Shown in pieces: positions 4,856 to 56,864 of a DNA stretch of 64,000 bases. This DNA is from Escherichia coli (GTDB lineage: Bacteria; Pseudomonadota; Gammaproteobacteria; Enterobacterales; Enterobacteriaceae). The DNA is taken from NCBI RefSeq assembly GCF_003334815.1, contig NZ_QOWO01000014.1, one strand, 5' to 3'. The position numbers and the translations under genes are program-made. The notes beneath the pieces were generated by a model that worked only from the letters and a program-made list of their open reading frames with translations, was not told where the DNA came from and did not search any database. Every line of letters starts with the position of its first letter. Positions within the stretch are counted from its first letter, which is position 1.

Positions 4856-5224
4856 AATAAAAAAAGGGAGCACTGTATTCACAGCGCTCCCGGTTCGTTT
4901 CGCAGCATTCCAGCTACTTTTGTTGCTCCCTGCTCATCCTTGACAACTTTTCCTCTGGCCTTGCGGCCAATCGTTCATCCTGAACTATTGCTTCCTGCTC
5001 ACACCACCCCGATGTGATACTTCATCCTGAAGTGTCCCTGGCCTTCCTGACCCACCGAATCATCCTGACCGGTTCTCATTCTCCATCCTGGAGGTGTCCT
5101 TTAACGCGTCCTGCGTCATCCTCTTCGCTTCATCCAGAAGCCTTTCCCTGAAACACCATCCTGGTGTGTCCTGCAGAAGTGTCATCATCCTGATGTTCAC
5201 TTCGTTGTCTGACTCCCTGTCGAC
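4856..5224 (-). ncRNA. csrB: CsrB small RNA (CsrA-sequestering); ends approximate to within about 5 nt
   Basis: Minus strand carries about 18 repeats of CAGGA(U/A)G / AGGA motifs (seen as catcctg / tcctg on plus strand 4930..5220) and ends in a GC hairpin plus U-run (plus 4857..4889); no credible ORF. Confidence 0.85.
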
Positions 5225-23395: not shown

Positions 23396-23601
23396 ACTTC
23401 CTGAGCCGGAACGAAAAGTTTTATCGGAATGCGTGTTCTGGTGAACTTTTGGCTTACGGTTGTGATGTTGTGTTGTTGTGTTTGCAATTGGTCTGCGATT
23501 CAGACCATGGTAGCAAAGCTACCTTTTTTCACTTCCTGTACATTTACCCTGTCTGTCCATAGTGATTAATGTAGCACCGCCTAATTGCGGTGCTTTTTTT
23601 T
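23396..23601 (+). ncRNA. gcvB: GcvB small RNA; ends approximate
   Basis: Starts ACTTCCTGAGCCGGAACGAAAAG, contains the G/U-rich seed tgtgatgttgtgttgttgtgtttg (23461..23484) and ends in hairpin gcaccgcctaattgcggtgc plus T8; divergent from gcvA as in the known arrangement. Confidence 0.85.
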
Positions 23602-23617: not shown

Positions 23618-23845
23618 TTACTGATCCAGTTCGACCATCTCTTTCACGTCAGTACGGTTGATCTGCTGTTTGTTGCCATTAGCGTCTTTATACGAAATCA
23701 TACCGGTATCGTTATCAGTCTGTGGTTTGCCGTCAGAGACGATGGTACGTCCGTCATTGGTGTGCATCACATAGTTCGAACCGGAACAGGCGCTCAGGGC
23801 AAAAGTCAGCATACAGGCAGAAATAATTGCGGCAGTCTTTTTCAT
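23618..23845 (-). CDS. ygdI: DUF903 small lipoprotein
   Basis: [22 protein letters not shown] lipobox signal peptide; paralogue of ygdR in this window. Confidence 0.85.
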
Positions 23846-24036
23846 CATCTTCTCCTTAAAGCGATTAATAAATCTTAATAGTATTGATTAACAGGCTAAA
23901 ATTAACGCCTAACACTATTCAGCATATGTTACTTACGCGGCTTCGCCAGGATATCCAGATAATTCTGATGGTTAGCACTCTCCTTGTATCAAAGTGAATT
24001 TTGCGTCACGATCGGTGCATCAAGCCGAGGAGTACC

Positions 24037-26595: not shown

Positions 26596-26693
26596 GCCTG
26601 ATGCGCTACGCTTATCAGGCCTACATAACTCCTGCAATATTTTGGATTTGCATGATTTGTAGGCCGGATAAGGCGTTCACGCCGCATCCGGCA
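26596..26693. repeat. Pair of REP elements (BIME-like) in the tcdA-mltA gap
   Basis: gcctgatgcgctacgcttatcaggcctac (26596..26624) and gtaggccggataaggcgttcacgccgcatccggca (26659..26693), classic REP palindromes in opposite orientation. Confidence 0.7.
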
Positions 26694-28085: not shown

Positions 28086-28162
<77 letters not shown>

Positions 28163-50898: not shown

Positions 50899-51612
50899 AT
50901 GTTATTTGCATGGATAACCGATCCTAACGCCTGGCTTGCGCTCGGTACGCTGACGCTGCTGGAGATCGTTCTTGGGATCGACAATATTATTTTCCTTTCT
51001 CTGGTGGTGGCAAAGCTTCCCACAGCACAACGTGCTCATGCGCGCCGTCTGGGGTTGGCGGGAGCCATGGTTATGCGTCTGGCGCTGCTGGCATCAATCG
51101 CCTGGGTTACGCGCCTGACAAATCCGCTTTTTACAATATTCAGTCAGGAAATTTCTGCCCGTGATTTGATTCTGCTTCTGGGTGGCTTGTTCCTTATCTG
51201 GAAAGCCAGCAAGGAAATCCACGAATCCATTGAAGGTGAAGAAGAAGGGCTGAAAACACGCGTTTCATCATTCCTCGGCGCTATCGTGCAGATTATGCTG
51301 CTGGATATTATCTTTAGCCTCGACTCGGTGATTACGGCTGTGGGTCTGTCAGATCACCTGTTTATTATGATGGCAGCCGTGGTGATTGCCGTAGGCGTGA
51401 TGATGTTCGCCGCGCGCTCGATTGGTGATTTTGTCGAACGCCATCCTTCGGTAAAAATGCTGGCGCTCTCTTTCCTGATTCTGGTGGGCTTTACCCTGAT
51501 TCTGGAAAGTTTCGACATCCACGTACCGAAAGGTTACATCTACTTCGCGATGTTCTTCTCTATTGCGGTTGAAAGCCTCAACTTGATTCGCAACAAAAAG
51601 AATCCGCTCTGA
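50899..51612 (+). CDS. ygdQ: TerC-family integral membrane protein
   Basis: 237-aa multi-[46 protein letters not shown]... Confidence 0.87.
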
Positions 51613-51749
51613 TACTCCGTACGCTCTCCTGCGGGAGGGCGTACTCACTCCTTTTACCCTCACAGTTTAAGATTTTCCTGCTTTCAAGATATATAACGTC
51701 GGTTTATAAACAGACTATTATCATAGGTAGGCCAAATGAGGATAACCGG

Positions 51750-51968
51750 ATGAAAAAATGGGCAGTAATAATTTCTGCAGTCGGACTGGCGTTTGCTGTT
51801 TCCGGGTGTTCCAGTGATTACGTCATGGCGACCAAAGATGGCCGTATGATTTTGACCGATGGAAAACCTGAAATTGATGATGATACCGGGCTGGTGAGTT
51901 ATCACGATCAGCAAGGTAACGCGATGCAAATTAACCGTGATGATGTTTCGCAAATTATTGAACGTTAA
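51750..51968 (+). CDS. ygdR: DUF903 small lipoprotein
   Basis: [32 protein letters not shown]... lipobox; about 50 percent identical to ygdI at 23618..23845. Confidence 0.85.
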
Positions 51969-52075
51969 CAAATAAGGTCAGCATCCGGCTGGCCTTAAGA
52001 TTTTTCTCTTTCCCTTTTCCCTTCCCTCTGCCATTTTTATATTCCTTATGTCGTGATTATAAAAAGGAAACGGCT

Positions 52076-53116
52076 ATGCAATATCACCGTATACCCCACA
52101 GTTCGCTGGAAGTCAGCACGCTGGGGCTTGGCACGATGACGTTTGGTGAACAGAACAGCGAAGCCGACGCCCACGCACAACTCGACTATACCGTCGCTCA
52201 GGGCATTAACCTTATCGACGTTGCCGAAATGTACCCAGTACCTCCGCGCCCCGAAACGCAAGGGTTAACCGAAACCTACGTCGGCAACTGGCTGGCGAAA
52301 CATGGCAGCCGCGAAAAGTTAATTATCGCCTCCAAAGTGAGCGGACCGTCGCGCAATAATGACAAGGGCATCCGCCCGGATCAGGCGCTGGATCGGAAGA
52401 ATATCCGCGAAGCGCTGCATGACAGCCTCAAGCGCCTACAGACTGATTACCTCGATCTTTATCAGGTGCACTGGCCGCAGCGCCCGACCAACTGCTTCGG
52501 CAAACTCGGTTATAGCTGGACGGATTCTGCGCCTGCGGTTTCGCTGCTGGATACGCTGGACGCACTGGCAGAGTGCCAACGCGCGGGAAAAATTCGTTAT
52601 ATCGGCGTGTCGAACGAAACTGCATTTGGCGTAATGCGCTACCTGCATCTGGCGGACAAACACGATCTGCCGCGTATTGTCACCATTCAGAACCCTTACA
52701 GTCTGTTAAACCGCAGTTTTGAAGTAGGTCTGGCAGAAGTCAGCCAGTATGAAGGGGTCGAACTGCTGGCCTATTCGTGCCTGGGTTTCGGCACGCTGAC
52801 CGGGAAATATCTCAATGGTGCAAAACCCGCTGGCGCACGTAATACGCTCTTTAGTCGGTTCACCCGCTATAGCGGTGAGCAAACGCAAAAAGCCGTCGCG
52901 GCGTATGTTGATATCGCCAGACGTCATGGCCTGGACCCTGCTCAGATGGCGCTCGCGTTTGTACGCCGTCAACCGTTTGTTGCCAGCACTCTGCTGGGCG
53001 CAACCACGATGGATCAGCTGAAAACTAACATCGAAAGTTTGCATCTGGAGTTAAGCGAAGACGTATTAGCTGAAATTGAAGCGGTGCATCAGGTTTATAC
53101 TTATCCGGCACCATAA
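52076..53116 (+). CDS. tas: Aldo-keto reductase (NADPH-dependent)
   Basis: 346-aa ORF MQYHRIPHSSLEVSTLGLGTMTFGEQNSEADAHAQLDYTVAQGINLIDVAEMY. Confidence 0.9.
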   Translation: MQYHRIPHSSLEVSTLGLGTMTFGEQNSEADAHAQLDYTVAQGINLIDVAEMYPVPPRPETQGLTETYVGNWLAKHGSREKLIIASKVSGPSRNNDKGIRPDQALDRKNIREALHDSLKRLQTDYLDLYQVHWPQRPTNCFGKLGYSWTDSAPAVSLLDTLDALAECQRAGKIRYIGVSNETAFGVMRYLHLADKHDLPRIVTIQNPYSLLNRSFEVGLAEVSQYEGVELLAYSCLGFGTLTGKYLNGAKPAGARNTLFSRFTRYSGEQTQKAVAAYVDIARRHGLDPAQMALAFVRRQPFVASTLLGATTMDQLKTNIESLHLELSEDVLAEIEAVHQVYTYPAP

Positions 53117-56580: not shown

Positions 56581-56668
56581 AAAAAAAACCTGCGCATCCG
56601 CGCAGGTTGGTGCAAGAGACAGGGTACGAAGAGCGTACCGAATAATCTCACCAATCAATACCTCTGGG
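56581..56668 (-). ncRNA. omrA: OmrA small RNA (88 nt)
   Basis: Minus strand reads CCCAGAGGTATTGATTGGTGAGATTATTCGGTACGCTCTTCGTACCCTGTCTCTTGCACCAACCTGCGCGGATGCGCAGGTTTTTTTT. Confidence 0.87.
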
Positions 56669-56782: not shown

Positions 56783-56864
56783 AAAAAAAACCTGCGCATC
56801 TGCGCAGGCTGGTGTAATTCATGTGCTCAACCCGAAGTTGACTTCACCTATCAATACCTCTGGG
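56783..56864 (-). ncRNA. omrB: OmrB small RNA (82 nt)
   Basis: Minus strand reads CCCAGAGGTATTGATAGGTGAAGTCAACTTCGGGTTGAGCACATGAATTACACCAGCCTGCGCAGATGCGCAGGTTTTTTTT; shares 5' and 3' ends with omrA. Confidence 0.87.

Follow-up and report, generated by a model that had tools for sequence, protein, structure and literature searches.

Two ancient paralogous DUF903 lipoprotein genes, ygdR and ygdI, in one conserved region of the Escherichia coli chromosome

The genes ygdR and ygdI are the founding members of the YgdI/YgdR lipoprotein family (NCBIfam NF033216, Pfam PF06004), from which they show no difference. The pair is already known: both genes carry an annotation, the family takes its name from the two of them, and structures have been deposited. 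Beyond their own family, the proteins have a fold in common with the Sm/Hfq-like small beta-barrels, at sequence identities of 4–19%. Unlike Sm/Hfq-like proteins, YgdR is lipidated and exported to the periplasm, and no RNA substrate is expected for it; periplasmic export and the single chains described by NMR would argue against an RNA-binding ring of the Sm/Hfq kind for YgdI and YgdR. A second point of comparison is provided by the small envelope proteins under RpoS or Rcs control, MliC, Ivy, OsmB, Slp, YcfJ and YmgG, which are induced together with the pair in the same experiments. Some of the six, such as MliC and Slp, are likewise small lipoproteins listed for the outer membrane. We found no sequence or fold relation between any of these six proteins and DUF903, and the inhibitor activity that is known for MliC and Ivy would be hypothetical for DUF903. 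Finally, Col plasmids and phages encode small lipoproteins for exclusion or release, among them MbeD/Exc, the colicin lysis proteins, Llp/Cor and TraT. The likeness here lies in the carriage of a small lipoprotein as cargo on a tiny mobilizable plasmid: on one 4.1-kb plasmid, a pair of DUF903 genes adjoins mbeB/mbeD/mobC, with no colicin or immunity gene annotated beside the pair.

The two genes studied here lie in a stretch of 64,000 nucleotides of E. coli DNA (contig NZ_QOWO01000014.1), referred to below as the window. The original prediction, made from the letters of this stretch, had described ygdR and ygdI as paralogous DUF903 lipoproteins, each with a lipobox, located about 28 kb apart and without an assigned function, and had called the retention of two copies in one region unexplained.

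Identity and architecture of YgdR and YgdI

The gene names given in the original prediction were right, as the RefSeq annotation and the coordinates of the open reading frames agree. A 2,001-base query (positions 51000-53000) matched, at 100% identity, an E. coli record in which the gene is annotated as 'lipoprotein YgdR' (WP_000758655.1). This piece of about 2 kb is 100% identical in many E. coli genomes, and the genes annotated in these matches are ptsP, rppH, ygdT, mutH, ygdQ, ygdR, tas, lplT and aas. At its full extent, the ygdI reading frame covers 23618..23848 (minus strand) and encodes 76 residues, with an in-frame ATG one codon upstream, at 23848, of the start chosen by RefSeq. The RefSeq start is the second ATG, which yields the 75-residue product listed in Table 1 at the same coordinates as those predicted earlier. 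The coordinates place the two genes 27.9 kb apart on opposite strands, in accordance with the predicted spacing, and tblastn searches with YgdR and YgdI detected these two copies and no third family member within the window.

Table 1 Positions of the ygdR and ygdI features, of further RNA genes in the window and of two plasmid-borne family members
Feature	Position	Strand	Description and basis
ygdR CDS	51750..51968	+	72-aa prolipoprotein; ORF and RefSeq annotation, NF033216, PF06004
ygdR lipobox V17-S18-G19-C20	51798..51809	+	Translation; Cys20 is the lipidated first mature residue
Most conserved block of the ygdQ-ygdR spacer, TTTAAGATTTTCCTGCTTTC	51666..51685	+	Footprint over 80 species loci
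TTTATAA, putative -10-like element, conserved	51703..51709	+	Footprint; not called by a simple promoter scan
ygdR Shine-Dalgarno sequence GAGGA, 7 nt before the ATG	51738..51742	+	Sequence; conserved in the footprint
Intrinsic-terminator-like hairpin followed by a T-run	51973..51997	+	Directly after the ygdR stop codon
ygdI CDS	23618..23845	-	75 aa from the RefSeq start; ORF and RefSeq coordinates, NF033216
ygdI lipobox L17-S18-A19-C20 (75-aa numbering)	23786..23797	-	Translation; +2/+3 are Ser-Gly
CsrB	4856-5215	-	Rfam gathering threshold
OmrA/OmrB pair	56581-56668 and 56783-56864	-	Rfam gathering threshold
ES036 (CssrF), short match	26617-26659	-	Rfam gathering threshold
Plasmid DUF903 gene	L002 2120-2347		NZ_JBSTNM010000004.1; ~2.5-kb plasmid
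Plasmid DUF903 gene	L096 1501-1728		NZ_CP035389.1; ~2.5-kb plasmid

Paralogy had been proposed on the basis of a common core sequence. Pairwise BLASTP aligned YgdR and YgdI with 43 identities over 72 positions (60%) and one gap (E = 1e-31); the core is directly visible in this alignment, and the low identity that could have undone the proposal did not materialise. Both proteins score above the curated cut-off of 42 bits of the NCBIfam model NF033216, 'YgdI/YgdR family lipoprotein' (105.9 bits for YgdR and 113.2 bits for YgdI), and YgdR matches Pfam PF06004 over model positions 1-49 of 49 (E 2e-24), which bears out the DUF903 assignment. Among complete E. coli genomes, ygdR was found in 5424 of 5426 and ygdI in all 5426, in each case with at least 99% identity in 5423. 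The two genes are E. coli core genes and ancient paralogues.

YgdR and YgdI have the same architecture: the signal peptide ends in a lipobox, and a single domain of about 52 residues follows it. The predicted lipoboxes are present in both translations, VSG/CSS in YgdR and LSA/CSG in YgdI, and the cysteine (Cys20) is invariant in 51 aligned family members. The Pfam model LPAM_1 gave no significant match to YgdR (E 1.5), and the lipobox call is a reading of the sequence. By established rules, both lipoproteins would be processed by Lgt, LspA and Lnt. An aspartate at position +2 is the established signal for retention of lipoproteins in the inner membrane. The residues at +2/+3 after the lipidated cysteine are Ser-Ser in YgdR and Ser-Gly in YgdI, and since the aspartate signal is absent, outer-membrane sorting is expected for both proteins; the Lol pathway would carry them to the inner leaflet of that membrane. 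In published work, YgdI was present in the outer-membrane and the vesicle fractions (PMC8284480), and the literature searched yielded no localisation of YgdR.

The domain itself is a small beta-barrel of five to six strands with the Sm/Hfq-like (SH3-like) fold, beginning 3–4 residues after the lipidated cysteine. In the AF2 model of YgdR (pLDDT 86), the first strand starts at residue 23, three residues past Cys20, so that the barrel would have to lie directly on the membrane. YgdR residues 21-72 are identical to the chains of PDB entries 2JN0 (NMR) and 3FIF (crystal), and six further family members have been solved: 2RA2 (Salmonella YgdI), 5CAI, 2RD1, 3BDU, 2RB6 and 2K57. A fold search of AFDB50 returned family members only, with no informative fusions. 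The family is small: of 1.84 billion representatives searched, 168 clusters at 50% identity match with E <= 0.001, and its named members are mostly from Gammaproteobacteria, with a few others. Conserved columns in the 51 members (Cys20, G31, K39-P40, D43, T46-G47, Y51, D53 and G56) fall mostly in turns, and no catalytic motif is apparent among them. Since the conserved turn residues (DG, GKP, D..TG, D..G) come without a catalytic motif, a binding module is the most likely role for the barrel; judging from the absent catalytic features, the barrel is probably not an enzyme. A conserved acidic surface was considered and rejected: YgdR carries a net charge of -6, whereas values in the family run from -10 to +3 with a median of -2.

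Age, synteny and constraint of the duplicates

In a codon alignment, ygdI and ygdR are 60% identical at the nucleotide level and 37% identical at third positions, and dS between them is not computable owing to saturation of synonymous sites. In a sensitive blastn search of complete E. coli genomes, neither gene's query detected the other gene. Saturation of dS and the lack of cross-detection indicate that the duplication is old and that no recent gene conversion has taken place. A rough neighbour-joining tree of the family, built on about 52 columns and carrying no support values, groups the YgdR type (ending ..IIER) with Aeromonas and Halopseudomonas sequences, and the YgdI type (ending ..ELDQ) with other Enterobacterales and plasmid sequences.

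Conservation of the ygdR neighbourhood was examined in 80 species-level loci, which are the 80 matches most similar to YgdR in a scan with a five-sequence alignment and are all Enterobacteriaceae-like. Wherever the DNA reaches, the order rppH-mutH-(ygdQ)-ygdR-tas-lplT is kept; a few loci end early. Further away, Rouxiella (Yersiniaceae) retains mutH-ygdR and Musicola (Pectobacteriaceae) retains mutH-ygdQ-ygdR-tas, and in Aeromonas a YgdR-like gene lies in an unrelated place. Synteny of ygdI outside E. coli was followed on three contigs: csdE-csdA/ygdI-gcvA is retained on two long Enterobacteriaceae-like contigs, and csdE-csdA/ygdI also on a more distant one that ends right after ygdI.

Two observations on individual loci were made along the way. 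The TerC-family gene ygdQ is missing, and mutH adjoins ygdR, in loci titled Enterobacter, Leclercia, Lelliottia, Silvania and one Buttiauxella (L029, L031, L036, L038, L041, L047, L051, L054, L055, L059, L063, L065, L075, L078 and others); it is also missing in Rouxiella and present in Musicola. Locus L073 (CACSKA010000005.1), titled 'Chryseobacterium sp. 18061', carries a typical Enterobacteriaceae rppH-mutH-ygdQ-ygdR-tas-lplT locus with gene coordinates nearly equal to those of L050, a record of the same study titled 'Citrobacter sp. 18056'. The L073 assembly is probably mislabelled or contaminated.

In comparisons against E. coli, with dS at about 1.5, the median dN/dS of YgdR was 0.026, an estimate biased in favour of YgdR because the loci were chosen by their similarity to it. 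At the 18 loci comparable for all genes, dN/dS was 0.015 for YgdR, 0.020 for Tas, 0.023 for RppH, 0.036 for MutH and 0.039 for LplT, and between E. coli and Citrobacter amalonaticus, YgdR is 100% identical and MutH 89%. YgdR is clearly under strong purifying selection, despite the bias in the choice of loci.

For two genes placed at random on a circle of roughly 5 Mb, simple arithmetic gives a chance of about 1% that they lie no more than 28 kb from each other, which makes an old local duplication likelier than chance proximity. The most economical account is an old local duplication whose products have been kept in one conserved synteny block. We found no relic of a larger duplicated segment; one candidate, an Aminotran_5 gene near the Rouxiella ygdR, was rejected at only 23% identity to CsdA.

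These data bear on the simplest alternative, that ygdI and ygdR are interchangeable back-up or dosage copies whose proximity is due to chance. The two proteins are indeed alike in domain, predicted location and length, are 60% identical with all family-conserved residues in common, and no notable single-gene phenotype emerged from the literature searched. Yet a dN/dS of about 0.02 across a whole order, together with fixed synteny for each gene, is unexpected for fully redundant copies; regulation differs between the two; and random placement would bring two genes this close with a probability of only about 1%. We therefore consider plain redundancy very unlikely.

Regulation and surroundings of the two loci

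The 170 nt upstream of ygdR were footprinted over the 80 loci. One block of the ygdQ-ygdR spacer, TTTAAGATTTTCCTGCTTTC, stands out, followed by the conserved TTTATAA and the Shine-Dalgarno sequence (Table 1). The left half of the block, T(A/C)AGA, stands 79-86 nt ahead of the ygdR start codon in about 74 of 82 loci, a constant spacing, and its right half varies among loci; a block of this type is absent in Rouxiella and Musicola. The published RcsB box is TN(G/A)GAN4TC(T/C)NA (PMC7913699). The TTTAAGATTTTCCTGCTTTC block agrees with it at 12 of 14 positions, the left half-site TAAGA being perfect and conserved. No exact RcsB box lies near ygdR or ygdI, and the window as a whole holds three, a chance-level number. 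The conserved upstream element of ygdR is itself real, and its assignment as an RcsB site is no more than plausible. Since a terminator-like hairpin follows directly on its stop codon, ygdR looks monocistronic.

Upstream of ygdI, the comparison drew on four other upstream sequences from three contigs. The sequence TATGCT (23926-23921) is conserved in two of three other loci. A sigma-S-like -10 candidate, CAATACT (23886-23880), was rejected, as it is not conserved in the three other loci.

Published data place the two genes in different regulons. Expression of ygdI depends strongly on RpoS: RpoS positively regulates ygdI in Citrobacter rodentium, where its expression is also lower in a cpxRA mutant (PMC6153362); YgdI belongs to the RpoS-dependent proteome of Salmonella (PMC5437024), and a study related to RpoS used a strain with a ygdI::yfp reporter (PMC13162491). 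For ygdR, induction through Rcs on cell-wall damage is noted in a table of PMC5105897. The same work reports that an inhibitor of LolCDE raised ygdI 25-53 fold and ygdR 8-12 fold. Both genes are also up after treatment with a cathelicidin-derived peptide (PMC6737244) and after a rapid acid shift, and in ampicillin-treated persisters YgdI is among the most newly made proteins, beside RpoS, MliC and YcfJ (PMC6414554). Overexpression of ygdI brought no reported benefit in one tolerance test (PMC12591173). The literature searched on ygdI and ygdR gives expression, localisation and screening data only; the statement that the proteins have no assigned function holds, and two very strongly conserved core envelope proteins remain without one.

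Taking these lines together, we lean, by a modest degree, towards the reading that ygdI and ygdR are old local duplicates with partitioned regulation, whose products are made under stress and act at the outer membrane as a binding module, not as enzymes. Under this reading, expression would be split between the stationary-phase and general-stress (RpoS) regulon for ygdI and the envelope-damage (Rcs) regulon for ygdR, and such partitioning would keep both copies. In the published data, both genes rise on damage to lipoprotein transport, to the cell wall or to the membrane. The barrel would then most likely serve as a small membrane-hugging module that binds a conserved envelope partner under stress, conceivable partners being the part of an outer-membrane protein that faces the periplasm, a second lipoprotein or the head group of a lipid. 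The 28-kb spacing would be frozen synteny, a relic of the old local duplication, rather than a functional cluster. Membership of different stress regulons provides an ordinary reason for keeping a duplicate. The earlier statement that the retention of two copies is unexplained needs qualifying in view of their ancient divergence, their own conserved neighbourhoods and their different published regulons.

The sRNA gene gcvB (Rfam, 199 bits; 23396-23601, plus strand) converges on ygdI, whose stop codon occupies 23618-23620, leaving 16 nt between the two genes. The only hairpin after ygdI is the gcvB terminator (23573-23594), with no T-run behind it on the ygdI strand; ygdI transcription may consequently read antisense into gcvB. 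In trimethoprim and sulfamethoxazole, transposon insertions in ygdI gave an advantage in growth (PMC8767339). With the folate-linked gcvB converging on ygdI across a gap of 16 nt, a polar effect is a possible cause of this insertion phenotype, and antisense read-through into gcvB might likewise account for it.

In Aeromonas (L085 8001-8222 and 11657-12154) and at the third-paralogue locus of Pseudocitrobacter (L094 6001-6234 and 8965-9444), 3-4 kb separate a DUF903 gene from folA (DHFR), and E. coli thyA is, by synteny, about 7 kb from ygdR. Taken together with the appearance of ygdI in the trimethoprim screen, the proximity to folA and thyA may be coincidence.

Several further RNA genes were located in the window (Table 1). 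SroC originates from gltI. Its derivation from the 3' region of ygdR, remarked on in PMC12803456, is not supported at this locus, where a scan of the window with Rfam at the gathering threshold called no sRNA at or beside ygdR. The window holds a single tRNA-Met (CAT) gene, at 28086-28162. At the same site, E. coli K-12 has three tandem copies, metZ, metW and metV, and the source strain may have a reduced tRNA-Met array.

Plasmid-borne relatives and other paralogues

A tblastn search of PLSDB with YgdI found 468 places in 381 plasmid records, 278 of which are typed as mobilizable; they come mainly from Enterobacter, Pantoea and Klebsiella. In an evenly spaced sample of the matches, about half are plasmids of 2,494-2,519 bp with only three annotated genes, namely a DUF903 gene, Rop and a hypothetical protein. 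The DUF903 gene is the only recognisable cargo of these Rop/ColE1-type plasmids, and its 75-residue product is about 51-54% identical to YgdI. Among the papers found under the replicon label of this plasmid type, none mentions the cargo in its title or abstract.

Two tandem DUF903 genes, 21 nt apart, are carried by the 4,096-bp ColRNAI/MOBP plasmid (L097 25-258 and 280-507), and the same two-gene arrangement is found on a 557-kb plasmid of Pantoea soli (L099 3751-3978 and 4001-4228). Between the two plasmids, the upstream genes of the pairs are orthologous at 75% identity and the downstream genes at 81%, as against only 39-47% within a pair. The spacer of 21-22 nt contains AGGAG, and in Pantoea a YmgB/AriR-family gene precedes the pair, two genes upstream. 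Halopseudomonas has an independent tandem pair, 42-49% identical (L092 5544-5762 and 6001-6219). Single paralogues occur elsewhere: the third chromosomal copy of Pseudocitrobacter lies between an MFS gene and kefF-kefC-folA, and an Erwinia-named type on a metagenome contig (L101 6001-6225) adjoins a prophage end that carries genes for holins, a repressor, a tail protein and DinI. The plasmid-borne pair lies outside the window and is the one mildly novel observation.

The co-transcribed plasmid pairs of diverged genes hint at physical cooperation between paralogues, and regulatory partitioning leaves such pairs unaccounted for. By extension, YgdI and YgdR might be partners in an outer-membrane hetero-oligomer that requires both distinct copies. 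The diverged two-gene operon is conserved between plasmids as different as the ColRNAI and Pantoea ones, a separate tandem pair exists in Halopseudomonas, and many plasmid records hold two copies; moreover, Sm-like folds often oligomerise, and crystal entries of the family hold 2-8 chains each. On the chromosome, by contrast, 28 kb separate the two genes, which lie on opposite strands, have a terminator-like hairpin each and belong to different regulons in published data. The 2.5-kb plasmids manage with a single copy, and the solution NMR entries 2JN0 and 2K57 are single chains, which suggests a monomer in solution. We regard such a partnership as unlikely.

The mobility of the family raises another alternative, in which DUF903 lipoproteins would protect the cell, in the manner of inhibitors or immunity proteins, from an envelope attacker coming from outside, and ygdI and ygdR would be domesticated chromosomal versions. 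The attacker could be an enzyme of the lysozyme kind, a bacteriocin, a phage or an effector of a type VI system. Consistent with such a role, very small mobilizable plasmids, which occur widely in Enterobacter, Klebsiella and relatives, carry family members as their sole recognisable cargo, and variable extra paralogues occur on megaplasmids, beside the prophage end and at the third Pseudocitrobacter site. In published experiments, induction of ygdI and ygdR coincides with that of the lysozyme inhibitor genes mliC and ivy (PMC5105897, PMC6414554), and in one survey a DUF903 cluster was statistically associated with a Serratia type VI system (PMC12165300). Against it stands the extreme conservation of the core copies (dN/dS about 0.02), as immunity proteins usually evolve fast. 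PADLOC gave no match for YgdR, YgdI or the plasmid protein. The link to PHROG was discarded as not meaningful, being weak (best E 3e-5) and confined to the first 50-70 residues, signal peptide included; the families matched are all of unknown function or 'secreted protein'. Matches in phage collections proved to be short or mis-filed chromosomal pieces. A protective role of this kind appears doubtful to us.

A broader version, in which DUF903 lipoproteins form a mobile, self-sufficient envelope module, often as a diverged pair, and ygdI and ygdR represent its separately regulated chromosomal form, we likewise hold to be improbable. If it were true, the plasmid copies would confer a selectable envelope trait, for example protection from an outside agent or stabilisation of the outer membrane. 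The 2.5-kb plasmid with its single DUF903 cargo gene is a natural gain-of-function construct for phenotype screens.
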